Positions 2,583 to 31,579 of a DNA stretch of 64,000 bases are shown in pieces. A program made the translations under genes and the position numbers. Source of the DNA: an uncultured Candidatus Saccharibacteria bacterium (lineage in GTDB: Bacteria > Patescibacteriota > Saccharimonadia > Saccharimonadales > CAIOMD01); NCBI GenBank assembly GCA_963716565.1, contig OY970318.1, positions 128,830 through 192,829 of the forward strand, in the 5' to 3' direction. Numbering within the stretch: the first letter of the stretch is position 1; every line of letters starts with the position of its first letter. The notes under the pieces were generated by a model, which saw nothing but the letters and a program-made list of their open reading frames with translations, searched no databases and was not told where the DNA came from.

Positions 2583-3023
2583 GTGGAGGAATCGTTGTAT
2601 AGCAAGTTGGTGGACGTAGTTCACGATGCTTTTGGGAAACAGCCACTACGTTCAACGGAGTGGCTACGGTTTCTTCAGCAGCATGGTGCGGGCATGTCGG
2701 ACTACTTCAACGCCTACTCGGTGTTAGAAGGTGCCGATGAGATTGCGCTCTACTTGGTGCTAATAGGTGCTGGCTGTTCTAGCGGCGCGGCTCTGGCCGT
2801 TGCACTGGATACTCACCTGTACGCCAAGCTGTACGCTGGCCTGGACGACAACGCCGCTCGGCGGGATAAGAAGTCCGCTAAGGCTTTCGAGCGATCGACA
2901 AGGGTGATCCTGTACGATGCCTTGGCAGCCAACAAGCGTGGCGAGTACGCCAAGCTGTCGGTGCAAGAGCGCCGTCAGTTTGTCACCGAGGTCCTGGCCG
3001 ACTGGGTATCTTCTCGCCAGTAA
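2583..3023 (+). CDS. hypothetical protein (G/C-rich orphan)
   Basis: 146-aa ORF with a GTG start after SD aggagg and strongly G/C-ending codons. No family was recognised. Confidence 0.55.
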   Translation: MEESLYSKLVDVVHDAFGKQPLRSTEWLRFLQQHGAGMSDYFNAYSVLEGADEIALYLVLIGAGCSSGAALAVALDTHLYAKLYAGLDDNAARRDKKSAKAFERSTRVILYDALAANKRGEYAKLSVQERRQFVTEVLADWVSSRQ

Positions 3024-3098
3024 AGGCATCAAGAAGTGCCCGATGCCCAATCTTGCATCACAGACATTTTGCCGGTTTAAGTCTTTAAAAAAACCGGT

Positions 3099-3150
3099 GT
3101 AGTCGTAGATTGTTTTATCTGCCTGACGAGCTCAAAAAGAGCGAAACTAC
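3099..3150 (+). ncRNA. hammerhead ribozyme, type III topology (cleavage predicted after C3104)
   Basis: Reads GUAGUC|GUAGAU-UGUUUU-AUCUGC-CUGACGA-GCUC-AAAAA-GAGC-GAA-ACUAC. The full core is present: CUGANGA, GAA, the A15.1-U16.1 pair and a GUC cleavage triplet. Stems I, II and III have 6, 4 and 5 bp. Confidence 0.85.
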
Positions 3151-3915
3151 CTACTTATGCGTCAAAATAAAGTTAACGGTATCAGAGTATTCTGTTTTTG
3201 CTTTAATTGGCTTTAGCGGCTTTTGGGCCTCTAAGCTAAATGTTAGGGCTGAATTTAAAGAATCTTGCTCGCTGTGTCTTTCTAGCCCCTTTAGCTCATC
3301 AATATTACTTTGTTTTTCTTTATAGCGTTTGATATTGTCAAAGCCCAGCGCTTTTACGGTTTCATCTAAGGCTTCAAAATCCCATAGGTATTTGTGGCCA
3401 AAACCAATGAAGCTGGTGTTTAAAAACTCCGAGCCTAACATTTTATGGCGTTTTTTGTAGATTGGCTTTTTTATATCCGGAACAATTCGCTGCTGGAGTT
3501 TTAAGAAACTTTCCAACACCCTTTTATCTTTATTCACATAGGCTTTACAAATTGCCTCTAAGTCTGGCATAGATATCCGTATTATGCCACCGGGCTTTAA
3601 TACCCTGTATATTTCGTGTAAGTGTTTTACGGTTTGTTCGTAGCTTAGGTGCTCTAAAAAATGTTCCGAAAAAGCGTAATCAATAGAGCTATTTTTAAAT
3701 GGCAACTTTTTTAGGGCGTTAAAATAAACATCACCAGTCCAGATATCTGCTGTTAGCCACCCCGGCTGCTTAACTGGCAGTTCGCCAGGGGCTAAGTGGA
3801 GTTTTCTGACAGCATTGCTGTTTAAATACTCTCTAATTTTAAAATATCTAACCAGATGCCCCTTTTTTAGTTGGTGCTTTATTCTGTTTGATCTATGTAG
3901 CCATTGCCCGGTCAT
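3151..3915 (-). CDS. class I SAM-dependent methyltransferase
   Basis: 254-aa ORF with a Methyltransf_11/23-like motif (LKPGGIIRISMPDLE) and the surrounding Rossmann pattern. Confidence 0.65.
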   Translation of the reverse strand: MTGQWLHRSNRIKHQLKKGHLVRYFKIREYLNSNAVRKLHLAPGELPVKQPGWLTADIWTGDVYFNALKKLPFKNSSIDYAFSEHFLEHLSYEQTVKHLHEIYRVLKPGGIIRISMPDLEAICKAYVNKDKRVLESFLKLQQRIVPDIKKPIYKKRHKMLGSEFLNTSFIGFGHKYLWDFEALDETVKALGFDNIKRYKEKQSNIDELKGLERHSEQDSLNSALTFSLEAQKPLKPIKAKTEYSDTVNFILTHK

Positions 3916-3919
3916 AGGT

Positions 3920-4420
3920 TTACCTATAATTCGTAAACCAGATAGGGAAGTCGTAGTTTTGGTTCCATAACAAGTCTATAACGGCCTGCAACTCATCTTT
4001 CTTAGAGCTCATAACTCGAATTTCTTCGCCTTGAATCTGGGTTTTGACTTTGGGGTATTTATCTCTGATTAAGCTAGTAATTTTTTTGGCTCTTTCTTGG
4101 TCTAATCCGCGTTTTAGGGGCACAATTTTAGTCGTTACAAAATTATTGGTAGTTGGCTCTTTGGATGTATCTAAAACTTTTTGACTTTGTTTTCGTAGAG
4201 CCAGTTTTTTACGCACAATGTCTAAAATGGCATCTAAGTGGAAGTCGTTTTCGCCGATTATTTTTAGAGCCGTTTTGGTATCGTCAACCCATTCTAGGCT
4301 GGATTTGGTATCTTTTAAATCGTATCTATTGGCAATTTCGCGCCGGGCTTGGTCTACCACATTATTAAGCTCGGCCTTATCATAATCACTTACTAAGTCG
4401 AAAGAAAATAAACTGCTCAT
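3920..4420 (-). CDS. yajQ: YajQ family nucleotide/cyclic-di-GMP-binding protein (UPF0234)
   Basis: 166 aa. N-terminal SFDLVSDYDKAELNNVVDQARREIANRYDLK and C-terminal FTNYR are typical of YajQ. Confidence 0.85.
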   Translation of the reverse strand: MSSLFSFDLVSDYDKAELNNVVDQARREIANRYDLKDTKSSLEWVDDTKTALKIIGENDFHLDAILDIVRKKLALRKQSQKVLDTSKEPTTNNFVTTKIVPLKRGLDQERAKKITSLIRDKYPKVKTQIQGEEIRVMSSKKDELQAVIDLLWNQNYDFPIWFTNYR

Positions 4421-4445
4421 ATTGCGATTATACAGGCAACGGCTA

Positions 4446-5960
4446 TTAAGGTGAATATACCGTTATGGTTAGATAGTTATCTTTGTCTCGCAGCTCATTA
4501 GCGGTGTAGGTTTTTGGCAACTCATCTTTCCAGCGGGAATCTTTATCGATGGCTAAAAAGGTGGCATCATCATTCAGGGTGCACGAAGGCGATAAATCAT
4601 TCTTCTGGCTGTAATATGCTATTTGTAAGGGTTTCTGGTTTGTCAAATAATCAATAGTCCACTTGGTATGAAACGTGCTACCTAACACGCAGTACTTATT
4701 TTGTGGATTTTCTAAAATATACTCAGCTGCCTCGCTGGCATTGTAAAAATAAGCTTCCTTGGTTTTATCTGCGACGGCCCATCTTTGAAAATAGCCTGTA
4801 TAGCTAGAATAGGCTGTAAAGAGGTATATAAGGCAGACTGCTGATGGTATCAAAATCTTGAGCATTCGTTGTTTGGCTTTGATATTTAACAGCAGGTTAA
4901 AACCGTAGGCTGTTATGGTGACCAAAAATGGCAAAGCCCCTATGTTTCTTAAATAATGCGGGGCATTATGGTAACCGATAAAGCCGGGCACTAACATTAG
5001 CAACAGCCAGCTGGCGCAAAAAAGAACTTTTTTATCTCGTTTTTTGTATGCCCATACCAAGGCGCCTACAAAAAATGGTGCCACCACGTAAGACAGAGCC
5101 GGTTGGGCAAAGGTATTGTGCCGAGGCTCACCATCGCCTTTTATAAAGAACATAGCTGCCGTTTTGGCAGAAGTAACCGCTACGGCTCTGGGTACAGAAG
5201 GGGCATTTAAGATGCTAATGTCTCCACGAGTTGCAAAATAATCGGGGTGTCTTAGATATGTAGTAGCTATTGGAACCAACACAATCAAGGTAGTTAGCGA
5301 AGCAAGAACTATTGCCTTACGAATTTTTGGACGCTTAAAGAATGCCCATGCGACAAACATCAAAACAAACAAAAAGTAGAATCTGTAAGAGGTGTAAGTA
5401 TAAGCGCCTAGGCCAAAGAATAATCCTGCTAACATTGGCCAAAGTACTAGGCGGGGCTTTTTGTATGCTATACCAGCCATCCATACGGATAGACAAACAA
5501 TTAGCGGAAATAAGTTAGCCCTAAAACCGTCCCGGCTTACGACAATGGCCCATGGCAAGAGGGCATATAACAGGGCCGCTAAAAAGCCGATTCTCTTGCC
5601 AAAAAAATGCTTTACGGCGCAATATAAAACGATTGTTGTAATAATGCCAATGATTGCTGGCGCGATACGTAAGCCAAAAATTGTATTACCAAAGATTAGT
5701 ACCCCGATTGATTGTAAATAAAAAAACAGCGCTTCGCGGTAGCCATTAAGAGGATAAATTGTCTGCCAGTTACCCTTAAATATATTTTGTAAAATATCCA
5801 GCCCATTAGCGGCCTCGTCGCCATATAGACCTGGGGGTGTGGTGTTAAGGTGGTATAACCTAAAAAAACCACTTACAAGCAATAGGACGAGGATAGCAAT
5901 AATTTCTATTTTATGTTTTTTAATATAGCTGTACATCTTTTGCACCTGACGCCCCTCCAA
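4446..5960 (-). CDS. ArnT/GT39-like membrane glycosyltransferase
   Basis: 504-aa polytopic membrane protein with the N-terminal pattern LYHLNTTPPGLYGDEAANG typical of the GT39/GT83 (PMT_2) family. The start is uncertain (5960, 5945 or 5936). Confidence 0.65.
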   Translation of the reverse strand: MEGRQVQKMYSYIKKHKIEIIAILVLLLVSGFFRLYHLNTTPPGLYGDEAANGLDILQNIFKGNWQTIYPLNGYREALFFYLQSIGVLIFGNTIFGLRIAPAIIGIITTIVLYCAVKHFFGKRIGFLAALLYALLPWAIVVSRDGFRANLFPLIVCLSVWMAGIAYKKPRLVLWPMLAGLFFGLGAYTYTSYRFYFLFVLMFVAWAFFKRPKIRKAIVLASLTTLIVLVPIATTYLRHPDYFATRGDISILNAPSVPRAVAVTSAKTAAMFFIKGDGEPRHNTFAQPALSYVVAPFFVGALVWAYKKRDKKVLFCASWLLLMLVPGFIGYHNAPHYLRNIGALPFLVTITAYGFNLLLNIKAKQRMLKILIPSAVCLIYLFTAYSSYTGYFQRWAVADKTKEAYFYNASEAAEYILENPQNKYCVLGSTFHTKWTIDYLTNQKPLQIAYYSQKNDLSPSCTLNDDATFLAIDKDSRWKDELPKTYTANELRDKDNYLTITVYSP

Positions 5961-10059: not shown

Positions 10060-10133
10060 GGCCGTATAGCTCAGTGGCAGAGCGGTCGGGGTAAGACTCG
10101 ATGTCGTCAGCGGTTCGAGCCCGCTTACGGCCA
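10060..10133 (+). tRNA. tRNA-like gene with irregular anticodon arm (identity undetermined)
   Basis: The acceptor (GGCCGUA/UACGGCC), D arm (GCUC-AGUGGCA-GAGC) and T arm (AGCGG-UUCGAGC-CCGCU) are canonical. The anticodon arm folds only as 6 bp with a 6-nt loop (GUAAGA), or as 5 bp with an 8-nt loop (GGUAAGAC). Confidence 0.5.
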
Positions 10134-10159
10134 CCTATGTGGCGGTTGTTTGTTTCGAA

Positions 10160-10232
10160 TGGCGCGTAGCTCAGCCCGGGAGAGCACCCCCTTACAGGGG
10201 GGAGGTCGATGGTTCAAACCCATCCGTGCCCA
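10160..10232 (+). tRNA. tRNA-Val(UAC)-like, with a register anomaly in the anticodon stem
   Basis: The D and T arms are canonical. The sequence GAGC-A-CCCCC-UUACA-GGGGGG-AGGUC resembles tRNA-Val (loop CUUACAG), but has 5 C against 6 G and a U1:C72 mismatch. Confidence 0.6.
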
Positions 10233-10244
10233 TTTTGTAACGTG

Positions 10245-10341
10245 GTGTCTGAAGCTCAGTATTGGCAGCGAGCAACCCAATCATATCCAATTAAAGGAGT
10301 GGAGGGGAAGGAGTTTGCGGGTTCAAGTCCCGCCAGACACA
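10245..10341 (+). tRNA. tRNA-like element or disrupted tRNA (97 nt) lacking a foldable anticodon arm
   Basis: Perfect 7-bp acceptor (GUGUCUG/CAGACAC), a D stem GCUC/GAGC and a T arm GCGGG-UUCAAGU-CCCGC. The 43-nt centre reads ACCCA-AUCAUAU followed by a purine-rich UAAAGGAGUGGAGGGGAAGGAGUUU, and I found no 5-bp stem with a 7-nt loop in it. Confidence 0.35.
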
Positions 10342-10548: not shown

Positions 10549-10621
10549 CTTCCTGTAGCTCAGTTGGCAGAGCGCCGCCTTTCTACGGCGGAAGTCGCTG
10601 GTTCGAGTCCAGCCAGGGAGA
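10549..10621 (+). tRNA. tRNA-Arg (anticodon UCU)
   Basis: Fully canonical cloverleaf: acceptor CUUCCUG/CAGGGAG, anticodon arm CCGCC-UUUCUAC-GGCGG, variable loop AAGUC, T arm GCUGG-UUCGAGU-CCAGC. Confidence 0.9.
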
Positions 10622-22477: not shown

Positions 22478-22565
22478 TACGCACTCCAAGGGGTAGACAA
22501 AAGGGCTACAATGTGTAATAATAGCTTTGTTCATTGTTGGCAAAAAATGCACCCAAGGGGGTCTC

Positions 22566-22814
22566 GTGAACGACTTAATAGAGGTCAGTCACATCCTGTT
22601 CGCCATAGCTCTGATCGCGCTTGGCCTCGTCGTTTTTCTTAGTTTTGCCTGGCTTGTTGGCAAGTTCATCTCCAAGATATCGGGCGATGAGGAGAATGAC
22701 AAGAGAGAGCGCAGGGTCGCAGCCAAGGTGATCGTCGCCTGTGCGCTAGTGTTTGCGGTGTCTCTTGGCTTGGGCTGGCTACTGTACTACCTAGGTGGTG
22801 GTACGGCAACATAG
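22566..22814 (+). CDS. hypothetical two-TM membrane protein (G/C-rich orphan)
   Basis: The in-frame GTG at 22566 follows SD aaggggg; the ORF track starts at 22527. Codons are G/C-ending. Confidence 0.45.
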   Translation: MNDLIEVSHILFAIALIALGLVVFLSFAWLVGKFISKISGDEENDKRERRVAAKVIVACALVFAVSLGLGWLLYYLGGGTAT

Positions 22815-23798: not shown

Positions 23799-23867
23799 TT
23801 CTATGGGCTTAGTAAAGAGTTCGGCGTTGTGCCTAAGCTGACGAGGCCAAAAGGCTTAAAAAACAGA
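23799..23867 (+). repeat. degenerate hammerhead copy, a direct repeat of the 26015-26073 ribozyme
   Basis: Positions 23827-23867 (ttgtgcctaagCTGACGAggccaaaaggctTAAaaaacaga) align with 26031-26071. G12 is changed to U, the nucleotide at the H17 position is G, the 5' strand of stem III has diverged, and loop I carries an insertion. Confidence 0.6.
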
Positions 23868-23923: not shown

Positions 23924-24238
23924 ATGGAAACACTCGAACAAGAGAAAACTAACCAGTATCGTCGAGCAAGCGCCTTTTGTATGCTTGGCTGTGACGCTTG
24001 CGATGCAATGCTAGGCAAAGAATGTAAGCCAACACTGAGTCTGGATGGTAGTGGTATTTACTGCCACAGGCAAAGCAAAGAGGTCACATTCACGGCCCTA
24101 GATGCTCATCAACAAGTTTTTGGTAAGCCAGCTAGATTGCTAGAAGAAAAAGCCCAACTTATAAGTAGGATATTCGGCCACCTAGAAATGCCCAAAGAAC
24201 CCGAAGCGCCAAAAGATTCGACAGAGCAAGTTTTATAA
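23924..24238 (+). CDS. hypothetical Cys-rich protein
   Basis: 104 aa containing CMLGCDACDAMLGKEC...YCH. Preceded by the TTGCTT promoter motif at 23884, with an AT-rich -10 about 8-10 nt before the ATG. Confidence 0.5.
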   Translation: METLEQEKTNQYRRASAFCMLGCDACDAMLGKECKPTLSLDGSGIYCHRQSKEVTFTALDAHQQVFGKPARLLEEKAQLISRIFGHLEMPKEPEAPKDSTEQVL

Positions 24239-24981: not shown

Positions 24982-25015
24982 CACTTTCGTTGAGATTACT
25001 CCGAAGGTGTTTTTT
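24982..25015 (+). terminator. rho-independent terminator after the hlyIII-family gene (or first hairpin of the downstream leader)
   Basis: CACUUUCG-12 nt-CGAAGGUG hairpin followed by U6. Confidence 0.7.
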
Positions 25016-25146
25016 GACAAGTAGGAAACGCAAAATGAGAGGCAAGGGCTTGGTTGCAAGCTTTTGCTCCTCATTTTGCGCTTCTCATAGGGAGAGGCCA
25101 ATAAGCTAAGGCTTGGGCGCTCGCCCAGTGAGGAGAAGGGGAAAAT

Positions 25147-25689
25147 ATGAATCTGCTATTGGACGTCAAAGGTGAGATGGTGGTTTTCGGCAAAAGCCTA
25201 GGCGACACCTTTCCTGAATGGGTGAAGGACGCCAAGGCGCTGGCCTATACCCAAGGGCATCAGTACGCGATGTTCGTGTATGAGGGCATCATAGTACGGG
25301 CGAGCCTGGGCTCAAGTTCCGAGCTCTTACTGCGCGATGTGCGGCGAGCGCGGTATGGTCATCTTGGTAACGCGGTGGGGCCGAAGTGCTGTGAGCATCT
25401 CACCGACGAGGACCTGCAGGAGGACGAGCTGGCCAGGGCTGCGTACGACGTCAACCATATCTTCACCTTGCTCATGGGCCTCATCAGTGAAGAGGTCCGT
25501 GCGGAATTGGATCGGGAGAACGTCGTGGCGTCCGGTATCAAAGGTGAACGGATCAAGCAGACGACTCGCCTAGTCCTTTCTATGAAGGACTTGGCCCGGC
25601 TCAGCATCCGGCTCGAAAGAGCGCAAGCAGGCGCCCAAGCCCAAGAGGTGGCTAAAGCCGAACCGGTCGCCGAAACGGTGGCGTCTTGA
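25147..25689 (+). CDS. hypothetical protein (G/C-rich orphan)
   Basis: 180 aa with SD gaggag and strongly G/C-ending codons. No family was recognised. Confidence 0.55.
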   Translation: MNLLLDVKGEMVVFGKSLGDTFPEWVKDAKALAYTQGHQYAMFVYEGIIVRASLGSSSELLLRDVRRARYGHLGNAVGPKCCEHLTDEDLQEDELARAAYDVNHIFTLLMGLISEEVRAELDRENVVASGIKGERIKQTTRLVLSMKDLARLSIRLERAQAGAQAQEVAKAEPVAETVAS

Positions 25690-25943
25690 ACGCCAAGCCA
25701 AAGTCGGCGTTGGTAACGGCCGGCTACAACGCGTTCTACGTACGTGCTGGTGTTCGGCTCGAAGACGCTCTGCGTGAAGCGGCGTCTGTGTCGGCCCAAG
25801 TGTGCAATCTGGTGACTGTTGTGTTCAACAATCGACCGCTTGCGATCGATACGACGACTGACGTCGAGAAGCTTCTAATAGCCGAAGGCCTAGACGGCAA
25901 TGCCGTTTCTTCGGACGTTTCTCGACGAAACGCTCACGCCTGA
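25686..25943 (+). CDS. hypothetical protein (G/C-rich orphan)
   Basis: 85 aa. The TTG start overlaps the upstream stop (TTGA), suggesting translational coupling. An 11-bp hairpin follows at about 25965-25994. Confidence 0.45.
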   Translation: MNAKPKSALVTAGYNAFYVRAGVRLEDALREAASVSAQVCNLVTVVFNNRPLAIDTTTDVEKLLIAEGLDGNAVSSDVSRRNAHA

Positions 25944-26014
25944 CCCCTCCCGGTTTTCAAAAGGGCGTAGTGGCCACCAACCACTACGCCCTATGCCGGT
26001 CTCCTACTTGTCAA

Positions 26015-26073
26015 TATCTGTTTACTTAAGTGTGCGCTTAAGCTGACGAGGTCAAAAGGCCGAAAAACAGATA
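26015..26073 (+). ncRNA. hammerhead ribozyme, type III topology (cleavage predicted after A26024)
   Basis: Reads UAUCUGUUUA|CUUAAG-UGUGCG-CUUAAG-CUGACGA-GGUC-AAAA-GGCC-GAA-AAACAGAUA. The full core is present. Stems I, II and III have 6, 4 and 9 bp, and all three covary with the 3099 copy. Confidence 0.85.
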
Positions 26074-26113
26074 GCAGTTTATTAAGTAGCAAAAACAATC
26101 TATTATTAATGTT

Positions 26114-26752
26114 ATGAGCATTATTTGTCCCACAATCCTAGCCAAAGATGAAGCCGATTTTAAAATTCAAATAGATAAAGTGGCTGGCTTTGCCAAGCGT
26201 ATTCAGATTGATTTAGAAGATGGTGTATTTGCTCCTAGCCAAAGTATTCCACTGGCCAAAGTTTGGTGGCCCAATGGTATCGAAGCCGACATTCACGTAA
26301 TGTACCAAAACCCCCAAGACTATCTAGAAACACTCATAAAACTTAAACCCAGCATGGTAATTGTGCACGCCGAAAGCACCTGTGATATTCCCAAACTGGC
26401 TGCCGATTTAAGAGTCGCCGGAATTAAAACGGGCCTAGCAATTTTGCAGCCAACTACTATTGATTCGGTAAAGTATATATTCCCGCACGTTCAGCATCTA
26501 TTAATCTTTAGTGGTGATTTGGGCCATTTCGGCGGCGTAGTCGACATGAGTTTAACCAGTAAAATCACCGAAGCTAAAACCGCTCACCAATATCTAGAGA
26601 TCGGTTGGGATGGTGGTATCACCGCCGAAAACGCCAAAGAGCTGGCCGAAGCCGGCGTAGATGTTCTAAATGTAGGCGGTGCCATCCAGAATGCTGATAA
26701 TCCACAAGAGGCTTATGCTAAAATAGTATCAAGTCTAAGTGGGCAAAAATAA
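26114..26752 (+). CDS. rpe: ribulose-phosphate 3-epimerase
   Basis: 212-aa TIM-barrel Rpe pattern (ICPTILA...IQIDLEDG...VIVHAES...GWDGGI). Confidence 0.8.
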   Translation: MSIICPTILAKDEADFKIQIDKVAGFAKRIQIDLEDGVFAPSQSIPLAKVWWPNGIEADIHVMYQNPQDYLETLIKLKPSMVIVHAESTCDIPKLAADLRVAGIKTGLAILQPTTIDSVKYIFPHVQHLLIFSGDLGHFGGVVDMSLTSKITEAKTAHQYLEIGWDGGITAENAKELAEAGVDVLNVGGAIQNADNPQEAYAKIVSSLSGQK

Positions 26753-30661: not shown

Positions 30662-30691
30662 CATCATCTAACCTGCTGGAAGAAAATGTTG
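30662..30691 (+). repeat. 30-nt direct repeat, copy A
   Basis: catcatctaacctgctggaagaaaatgttg matches 31550-31579 (caacatctaaactgctggaagaaaacgttg) at 27 of 30 positions. Confidence 0.7.
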
Positions 30692-30790
30692 CGCTAAAAG
30701 GGAAGTAGCGTGTGACGCCATTGATTAATAGCAAAGTTGGATTTTTATGTTTTTATAAAAAGCTAAAGGTTAATTAGTCTTAACATAAAA

Positions 30791-30819
30791 TTGACTTAGT
30801 AGCATATTACGGTTAAAGT
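30791..30819 (+). promoter_or_regulatory. sigma70-type promoter (TTGACT-17-TAAAGT)
   Basis: Hexamers read directly. SD aggagg and TTG 30868 lie downstream. Confidence 0.55.
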
Positions 30820-30867
30820 AATCTAATCTGGGTTATTGTACAAGCGTTCTTTAGTTAGGAGGCAGGG

Positions 30868-31440
30868 TTGAAAACGTCAACACTTGAAGCACTAATGGGC
30901 AAGATGGACGAGAACCCAAAGGTCTACCGGGTCGGGTCTACCGTTCCCAGTAGGCTTACGTGGGGTGACACCCGTGTGTTCGGGCAGGTGTTTGTTGCAC
31001 CGCAGCACTGTGGTGCTGGTGCGGCAGATGGTCTGTACAAGGTCGAGGCCTTGAATGGCTTCATGAAGGGCCTCATCCCGACCGATCACAGGCCTGTGGA
31101 AGAGATGCCCTTTATCGAAGAGGGCGGGAGTCTGTCGTTTGGCTGGATGGAGTTCGTTCAGGTTGTAGCACGGTCTCGCCGCGAGCTAACTCTCGTCCAA
31201 CTGACCAAGGACTTGGCACTTCCCGTGTTCAAAGCGGGCGACGAGAAGGGCAAGGAAGAAGGCAACGATCTGGTCAAGTCCTCTGAGGCCACTGACGTCG
31301 AGCTGGTTGTAAGGGTTTGCTGCTTTCCGGACGTGACTCTGGCCAAGAAGGCCATCAAGACCGACAAGACGAGCATCCAAAGCGCCTCTCTCTTTCGGTA
31401 CCAGCAACGGCTCGATAACGTCCTCAAGGGCCTCTTCTAG
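30868..31440 (+). CDS. hypothetical protein (G/C-rich orphan)
   Basis: 190 aa. TTG start 7 nt after SD aggagg. G/C-ending codons. No family was recognised. Confidence 0.55.
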   Translation: MKTSTLEALMGKMDENPKVYRVGSTVPSRLTWGDTRVFGQVFVAPQHCGAGAADGLYKVEALNGFMKGLIPTDHRPVEEMPFIEEGGSLSFGWMEFVQVVARSRRELTLVQLTKDLALPVFKAGDEKGKEEGNDLVKSSEATDVELVVRVCCFPDVTLAKKAIKTDKTSIQSASLFRYQQRLDNVLKGLF

Positions 31441-31476
31441 CCCACTGCGGCCACCGCCAAGAACCACCCGGAGTTG

Positions 31477-31516
31477 CCCGGTACGTCTAAAAAACGTACC
31501 GGGCTCTTCATTTTTA
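31477..31516 (+). terminator. rho-independent terminator
   Basis: 10-bp hairpin CCCGGUACGU/ACGUACCGGG followed by a U-rich tract (CUCUUCAUUUUUA). Confidence 0.8.
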
Positions 31517-31549
31517 TGGCCCAAAATCCACCATCTAACGTCTATCGTC

Positions 31550-31579
31550 CAACATCTAAACTGCTGGAAGAAAACGTTG
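31550..31579 (+). repeat. 30-nt direct repeat, copy B
   Basis: See copy A. It lies immediately upstream of the pfkB-family gene promoter (TTGAAT-17/18-TATACT at 31586-31615). Confidence 0.7.

Follow-up and report, generated by a model that had tools for sequence, protein, structure and literature searches.

A hammerhead motif upstream of rpe

The stretch of DNA analyzed here (64,000 nt, hereafter the window) is part of a Saccharibacteria-like chromosome, and a GTDB relative of its rpe gene lies in a Candidatus Saccharibacteria MAG. On the upstream side of rpe, which is followed by a split transketolase and a class II aldolase, the plus strand carries in succession two overlapping G+C-rich open reading frames (ORFs), a G+C-rich hairpin, and a hammerhead ribozyme motif, copy 2 (Table 1). 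The flanking genes are housekeeping genes, and no recognizable phage genes or integrase were found near copy 2. A second intact hammerhead, copy 1, lies 23 kb away, with unrelated sequence between the two. A preliminary description of this DNA had placed copy 2 in a 40-nt spacer arrangement ahead of an rpe-tkt-fba gene order and behind a strong hairpin that lacks a U-run; the spacer and gene order were recovered, with the ATG of rpe at 26114, and so was the hairpin, at 25962-25992.

Table 1. Positions of the ribozyme, cassette, and rpe features within the window
Feature	Position	Strand	Remarks
Type III hammerhead, copy 1 (paralog)	3099-3150	+	RF00008, 36.5 bits; R1, 48.2 bits
Parts upstream of copy 1 (island 1)	hairpin, 3071-3098; G+C-rich ORF, 2583-3023	+	
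Decayed paralog of copy 2	23824-23866	+	R1, 19 bits; 2.2 kb from copy 2
Inverted repeat, 16 nt	25014-25029 and 25999-26014	+	15/16 complementary; brackets island 2
Two overlapping G+C-rich orphan ORFs (180 aa and 85 aa)	25147-25943	+	coding periodicity; cassette cargo
G+C-rich hairpin, 12-bp arms, no U-run	25962-25992	+	-23.3 kcal/mol, z -5.2; 22 nt upstream of copy 2
Type III hammerhead, copy 2	26015-26073	+	sequence, descriptor scan, fold, covariance model
Copy 2, stem III	26015-26023 / 26065-26073	+	9 bp; 5' strand UAUCUGUUU, 3' strand AAACAGAUA
Copy 2, first pair of stem III	U26023-A26065	+	U16.1-A15.1
Copy 2, cleavage-site H17	A26024	+	predicted cut between 26024 and 26025
Copy 2, stem I	26025-26031 / 26036-26042	+	CUUAAG(U) / (G)CUUAAG; C26025-G26042 is the 1.1-2.1 pair
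Copy 2, loop 1	26032-26035	+	GUGC
Copy 2, core C3-A9	26043-26049	+	CUGACGA
Copy 2, stem II	26050-26053 / 26058-26061	+	GGUC/GGCC; G26050-C26061 is G10.1-C11.1; one U-G pair
Copy 2, loop 2	26054-26057	+	AAAA
Copy 2, G12-A14	26062-26064	+	GAA
rpe, first gene of rpe-tktN-tktC-fba	26114-26752	+	40 nt downstream of copy 2

The sequence at 26015-26073 of the plus strand reads exactly as first given, and its earlier reading as a type III hammerhead agrees with core positions, fold, shuffle controls, and score against a viral model alike. Positions C3-U4-G5-A6-N7-G8-A9 and G12-A13-A14 stand in the correct order around a three-way junction; stems I and II are closed by loops, stem III is open, and H17 is not G, which together define the type III topology. 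Stem I had been described as 6 bp with a 6-nt loop; the letters stand, but the helix can be drawn as 7 bp with a U-G closing pair and a GUGC tetraloop, the form that is the subfamily consensus and is adopted here. Both loops (GUGC with its U-G closing pair, and AAAA) match that consensus, and loop 1 was left unconstrained in the viral search described below. The minimum free energy (MFE) fold predicted by ViennaRNA is the canonical junction for the isolated 59-mer (z -2.7), and the same junction is retained as the MFE structure in a 150-nt context and in the putative 1.1-kb cassette transcript. The cleavage triplet is UUA, one of the rarer types in the subfamily, and stem III, at 9 bp, is near the top of the family range (4 to 7 bp, with one of 10), a length that could slow product release.

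When both strands of the window were scanned with a descriptor, only copy 2 and the element at 3099-3150 were found. In 400 dinucleotide-preserving shuffles, a lax descriptor gave 0.0175 matches per window, and the observed stem lengths were reached in none of the 400. Since the scan and the shuffles differ to this degree, we exclude a chance origin of copy 2. From its sequence and predicted fold, we consider it very likely that copy 2 is a genuine type III hammerhead that is predicted to cleave itself.

A covarying type III subfamily

No ribozyme of any class was called in the window by Rfam at gathering thresholds. Copy 2 was not matched by RF00008 (Hammerhead_3) even at an E value of 10 or below, and at permissive Rfam thresholds it produced only a mis-registered alignment to HH9 (14.1 bits). 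The RF00008 gathering threshold of 48.5 bits was thus not reached by copy 2, nor was it reached by copy 1 (36.5 bits) or by any of nine viral members of the same subfamily (37.8 to 45.4 bits). Since the nine viral members fall short too, the cut-off is conservative for this subfamily. We used a second covariance model, R1, made from 18 viral hammerheads with the window sequences excluded. Against R1, whose E values are rough owing to a shortened calibration, copy 2 scored 54.9 bits (E of ~3e-12) over its full length (26017-26071) and copy 1 scored 48.2 bits (3097-3152), while the third-best match within the window, at 23824-23866, scored 19 bits. The cmsearch comparison proposed in the preliminary description was therefore negative for copy 2 with RF00008 and positive with the viral-built model.

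Members of the subfamily were collected by pattern. An exact-pattern scan of IMG/VR, with specified bases limited to the core, the stem II ends, and the A4 loop, gave 24 loci, and a complete hammerhead surrounded the match in 22 of them. The subfamily is characterized by a 7-bp stem I closed by a U-R pair, a GNGY loop 1, the CUGACGA core, a 4-bp stem II with an AAAA loop, and, in the viral examples, a stem III of 4 to 6 bp. Across 18 aligned viral type III sequences, 98.3% of helix cells are paired and double changes occur at 13 of 16 pairs, versus only 29 to 50% of cells paired when the partners were slid as a control. A stricter pattern with 23 specified bases, for which the chance expectation is far below 1, matched at least 120 metagenome loci; the matches listed include 85 distinct type III ribozymes in 80 metagenome loci. 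Among these listed matches, the cleavage triplets are GUC (23), CUC (15), CUU (11), UUC (9), GUA (8), UUA (3), and others.

A model-fitted alignment, A5, of 139 matches among those listed (122 distinct) has 97.9% of cells paired and double changes at 13 of its 16 pairs. The search patterns had specified the core and loop 2, and loop 1 in part, and had left stem positions free (N). The pairs that are essentially invariant in A5, again among the matches listed, are A15.1-U16.1 and G10.1-C11.1, as expected for hammerheads. The unusual features of copy 2 recur in other members, a UUA triplet in 3 and an A-U pair at 15.2-16.2 in 14. The preliminary description had argued for compensated helix variation by comparing the two window paralogs. 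That comparison is insufficient in itself, and the evidence comes from wider alignment and orthologs: the 122-sequence alignment, the ortholog of copy 1, and orthologous pairs at other loci all uphold the claim. The matches listed are intergenic and on the coding strand, the median distance being 73 nt from the preceding stop codon and 56 nt to the next start codon, and the type III members on viral contigs are mostly 20 to 30 nt ahead of the next start codon.

Reports of hammerheads in bacterial and phage DNA date back to 2010 to 2011, and copy 2 adds no ribozyme class; it is a known kind in a new host and setting. It shares with RF00008 (clan CL00010) the type III topology, the core, and the G10.1-C11.1 and A15.1-U16.1 pairs, and it differs from the RF00008 consensus (GUC / GAAAC) in its UUA triplet and its A/U-rich, 9-bp stem III. 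With at least 120 metagenome loci and every tested member below the cut-off, the subfamily represents a very common environmental group that the Rfam type III model misses. Hundreds of bacterial hammerheads have been reported, many near integrases or prophages, and those in prophages often flank single genes or short blocks of varying identity (Perreault et al. 2011, PMC3088659). Three tandem arrangements tested in that study cleaved during in vitro transcription, the one from A. tumefaciens also in vivo, and its authors proposed that long transcripts are processed into gene-length mRNAs (PMC3088659). Our literature search found no paper linking hammerheads with Saccharibacteria. The window elements resemble those of Perreault et al. 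2011 in their canonical core, their intergenic position on the coding strand, their variable and unrelated neighbor genes, and the proposed cutting of longer transcripts to gene-length mRNAs. Unlike the clusters of that study, there is one ribozyme per island, with intact copies 23 kb apart and a relic 2.2 kb upstream of copy 2; the window lacks recognizable phage genes or an integrase, the host has a small Saccharibacteria-like genome, and the island lies directly against a core metabolic operon.

The upstream cassette and its junctions

The ORFs upstream of both hammerheads have normal coding periodicity and a foreign composition, with a GC3 of 0.59 to 0.70 versus 0.39 to 0.48 in the neighboring host genes. 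We considered whether the G+C-rich islands might be noncoding structured RNA and rejected this reading on the basis of clear GC1/GC2/GC3 periodicity and Shine-Dalgarno (SD) sequences. No significant match to Pfam, PHROG, PADLOC, or NCBIfam was found for the island ORFs. The 180-aa ORF had no relative but itself among 5.8e9 proteins, an exhaustive search giving a single match at E = 5e-4, and tblastn and blastn searches of the cargo against 50,697 phage records returned no match. Family-library searches found no recombinase linked to the window islands.

Copy 2 starts 71 nt after the cassette stop codon. The intervening hairpin at 25962-25992 is followed by AUGCCGGUCUCC, which contains no U-run; no terminator-like site was called there, and we reject the hairpin as an intrinsic (Rho-independent) terminator since the U-run is missing. 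As modeled, it is likely a 3'-protective structure of the cleaved cassette mRNA. At z < -2, a strong hairpin lies directly upstream of 14 of the 18 non-redundant type III members from viruses, and the mean z of the upstream hairpin is -3.4 for type III hammerheads (both window copies included) versus -0.8 for type I. In type I hammerheads, the upstream cleavage product retains most of the ribozyme fold. A universal hairpin-hammerhead composite was rejected: it holds for most viral examples, but a hairpin is directly upstream in only 39% of the metagenome members among the matches listed. Given this 39%, the protective-hairpin idea is not general.

The right arm of the inverted repeat that brackets island 2 ends one base before copy 2, and when the putative cassette transcript is folded, the two arms pair with each other in the MFE structure. 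An equal repeat arose in 4 of 200 block shuffles, which is a modest significance, and there is no counterpart at copy 1. An insertion sequence or MITE with terminal inverted repeats was rejected for these reasons and for want of a transposase, and an IS200/IS605-like element with end hairpins was rejected because the two hairpins are unrelated in sequence. It is possible that the repeat serves in 5'-3' pairing of the RNA and is not a transposon end.

Comparison with relatives indicates that the block was inserted. The hammerhead is absent from one GTDB relative, L001 (rpe 58% identical), and from four metagenome relatives, L026 to L029 (rpe 81 to 92% identical). The latter four retain the rpe-tkt locus, give no match to the ribozyme model, and lack the cassette and hairpin too. 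HlyIII is visible upstream of rpe in L027 to L029, the three relatives whose contigs extend far enough, and the HlyIII-rpe spacer is just 93 nt in the closest relative, L026. Because the relatives lack the block of cassette, hairpin, and hammerhead, it is an insertion, or at minimum did not belong to the rpe leader ancestrally. A comparison with homologous intergenic regions, as proposed in the preliminary description, could thus be made at the rpe locus but met the element in none of the five relatives, and no ortholog of copy 2 was found through rpe synteny among them.

Neither the window rpe nor those of L001 and L026 to L029 have an SD sequence, and a -10-like hexamer (TATTAT, TATAGT, or TATACT) precedes the rpe ATG by 6 to 8 nt in the window and all five relatives; in the window it is TATTAT at 26101-26106, 7 nt before the ATG. 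This pattern suggests that rpe has its own, possibly leaderless, promoter and that a leaderless rpe-tkt-fba mRNA may be made in this clade. As a separate observation, L027 (3720-3900) and L029 (1160-1380) share a conserved element of ~180 nt upstream of rpe, with no Rfam match, in which a long-range helix seems to covary (GUCAAACAAACAAC/GUUGUUUGGAUUGAC versus GUCAAUCAAACAAU/AUUGUUUUAUUUGAC). The window retains only a fragment of it, UUGACAAGUAGG, at 25014.

Copy 1 had been described as lying in the same context as copy 2, which the sequence does not support. Its 3' end (3150) abuts the stop codon (3151) of a convergent methyltransferase gene, and there is no co-directional gene downstream. The third, decayed element at 23824-23866 is in a divergent intergenic region upstream of an orphan ORF (23924-24238). 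It keeps CUGACGA and an intact stem II with its AAAA loop; stem I is disrupted, 8 nt have been inserted in loop 1, and G12 is mutated, with UAA in place of GAA. The presence of such a relic 2.2 kb from copy 2 shows that these motifs can be dispensable. The cargo ORF of island 1 has one partial homolog, on contig L150, where positions 1-400 correspond to window positions 2755-3155 and contain an orthologous ORF, hairpin, and hammerhead. DNA identity is ~80% in the ORF and ~93% in the hairpin and hammerhead, so the RNA part is better kept. Between L150 and copy 1, N7 changes from C to U, two one-sided changes in stem I keep their pairs, and stem II has a double change from C-G to U-A. The homology ends 4 nt past the ribozyme, and another gene follows.

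The same break recurs elsewhere. In L015/L042/L051, L069/L085, and L078/L109, homology runs through the gene, the hairpin, and the ribozyme and is then lost. In these three independent groups of phage and metagenome contigs, the upstream gene, hairpin, and ribozyme are 90 to 97% identical, compensatory changes included, and the downstream sequences are unrelated. Homology between related contigs repeatedly breaks off 4 to 15 nt past the ribozyme. The 95 positions that bear a ribozyme include 7 pairs with homology on the upstream side alone and 2 with homology on the downstream side alone. Because these breakpoints fall just 3' of the ribozyme, the ribozyme is tied to the upstream gene or cassette. 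Base composition changes at the same edge: in the metagenome loci listed, the 600 nt upstream exceed the 600 nt downstream by an average of 2.4 G+C points (Wilcoxon p = 0.03), and G+C drops by more than 8 points downstream in 10 of 49 of these loci versus 1 in the opposite direction. Viral contigs showed no upstream/downstream G+C asymmetry. A G+C-rich gene followed by a hammerhead and an abrupt drop to A+T-rich DNA is seen in L030, L040, L046, L101, and L104, and in such loci the A+T-rich DNA sometimes abuts a convergent gene. The junction behavior of the module and the G+C asymmetry are, as far as we checked and in a limited sample, apparently undescribed before.

Two of these contigs, L030 and L040, are syntenic, with a G+C-rich CBS-domain gene beside an AddA-like helicase-nuclease gene. 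Both contigs have kept the CBS-domain gene together with the hammerhead in its 3' untranslated region (UTR), in which a G-C pair of stem I is replaced by A-U. As at copy 1, a convergent gene has its stop codon close to the 3' end of the ribozyme, at a distance of 1 to 2 nt. Contig L055 (693,815 bp) carries a hammerhead of the subfamily between rpsP and trmD (4011-5600), on a locally G+C-richer segment of a small A+T-rich genome, and is a second case of the module in or next to a core operon.

A proposed cassette 3' end and alternative readings

The best-supported reading is that copy 2 forms the 3' end of a horizontally acquired cassette, and on the sequence evidence we give this reading a probability of about 0.6. 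The cassette would be a foreign block of ~1.1 kb, comprising a 5' UTR, the two G+C-rich orphan ORFs, the hairpin, and the hammerhead, set between a HlyIII-family gene and rpe. With no intrinsic terminator, RNA polymerase would run through the hairpin and copy 2, and copy 2 would fold and cut after A26024. The cassette mRNA would thereby be set free with a 2',3'-cyclic phosphate end just past the 12-bp hairpin, which would be expected to block 3' exonucleases, and the inverted repeat could pair the 5' UTR with the extreme 3' end of the cleaved mRNA. The read-through RNA would keep a 5'-OH and the remaining 49 nt of copy 2 at its 5' end. Such a module would act as a portable 3'-end former and insulator that needs no terminator and moves together with its upstream gene. 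A broader proposal, which we put forward tentatively, is that gene-hairpin-type III hammerhead units may be discrete exchangeable cassettes that move between phages and CPR-like bacteria of small genome size, with the ribozyme as a 3'-end former and insulator that works independently of the host and the 3' edge of the ribozyme as the junction.

If this broader proposal is true, foreign genes could be placed beside or inside essential operons, such as rpe-tkt-fba here and rpsP-trmD in L055, without a terminator. If the cassette reading is true, bacterial hammerheads would gain a concrete function, and a compact insulator for synthetic operons might also be possible. The comparative evidence has the ribozyme going with its upstream gene and marking the 3' edge of an exchangeable module, and the window offers a natural test case, with a ribozyme-ended foreign cassette against a core pentose-phosphate/glycolysis operon in a reduced genome. 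Known systems are similar in part. Twister and other self-cleaving ribozymes in 3' UTRs and polycistronic mRNAs are likewise proposed to process mRNA ends or intercistronic regions and so alter stability (PMC6765202), but copy 2 belongs to a different ribozyme class. Phage 'moron' cassettes, autonomous genes set between other genes with a promoter and a terminator of their own, are also small genes of foreign composition with promoter-like and SD sequences between host genes, and island 3 (30868-31440) likewise has an ordinary terminator at its end; unlike them, islands 1 and 2 end in a hairpin and ribozyme instead of an intrinsic terminator.

A serious rival, although in our estimate an improbable one, is that copy 2 is a real, possibly still active hammerhead of phage type that came in with foreign DNA and serves no function in this host. 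The orphan status and foreign composition of the cargo ORFs would fit a neutral hitch-hiker, as would the lack of the block in the closest relatives and the decayed paralog nearby, and the function of bacterial hammerheads is generally unknown, being still listed as open in a 2019 review (PMC6765202). Copy 2, however, is wholly intact, with no disabling change. Against this rival also stand L150, in which the RNA of the sister cassette has changed less than the ORF and includes a compensatory change, and the orthologous hammerheads of L030/L040 and L015/L042/L051, which keep their pairing through double changes.

In the preliminary description, cleavage was proposed to divide the cassette transcript from the rpe-tkt-fba mRNA. 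As a main role, processing of a cassette-rpe cotranscript that makes the 5' end of the rpe-tkt-fba mRNA seems to us unlikely. Copy 2 is on the same strand as rpe and 40 nt ahead of it with no terminator between, the viral type III members usually precede a start codon by 20 to 30 nt, and the L055 member is inside the rpsP-trmD operon, all of which would suit such processing. Yet the relatives have no such element ahead of rpe, and cleavage would give an 89-nt leader instead of the leaderless mRNA to which the missing SD sequence and the -10-like hexamer 7 nt before the ATG, shared with five relatives, seem to point. Because of these promoter features, the solely convergent gene downstream of copy 1, and the homology breakpoints that link the ribozyme with the upstream gene, we rank this role below 3'-end formation for the cassette.

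A role at the level of DNA, in which the ~55-bp hammerhead is a recombination junction for module exchange and its RNA activity is secondary, is quite improbable. It would account for the repeated stop of homology 4 to 15 nt after the ribozyme and for the abrupt drop in G+C at the ribozyme, which the window shares with 10 of the 49 metagenome loci listed, versus 1 opposite. The helices covary rather than keep their sequence, however, as selection on RNA structure would have it, and this leaves little sequence identity for homologous recombination, and no recombinase is linked to the window islands.

We find it hardly credible that copy 2 matches by chance or belongs to a circular-RNA, retrozyme-like, or viroid-like element: nothing but the type III topology, typical also of eukaryotic retrozymes and many viroids, speaks for it, whereas the observed stringency was reached in 0 of 400 shuffles (model E of ~3e-12), and, in place of the two cleavage sites per unit and the RNA replication or retrotransposition cycle of those elements, there is a single ribozyme per island, with no flanking second cleavage site or motif repeat, encoded after a protein-coding cassette in chromosomal DNA between housekeeping genes.

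Other parts of the window also have foreign-looking composition. A third G+C-rich island (30662-31579) contains a 190-aa orphan ORF (30868-31440; GC3, 0.70) and ends in an ordinary hairpin with a U-run (31476-31504) and no hammerhead. Direct repeats of 30 nt (30662-30691 and 31550-31579), 90% identical to each other, border the island on both sides, and a similar CATCTAACGTCTATC motif is found upstream of rpe in L027. Two small ORFs, at 1259-1609 and 22527-22814, have a foreign-looking GC3 (0.66 and 0.62, respectively) and no ribozyme nearby. Finally, a cluster of tRNA-like genes with abnormal anticodon regions is present at 10060-10341 on the plus strand. Two of them are called 'tRNA-???' with two-base anticodons by ARAGORN, and a third (10245-10341) needs a 37-nt insertion to align to the Rfam model; the tRNA-Arg(TCT) gene that comes next, at 10549, is normal.
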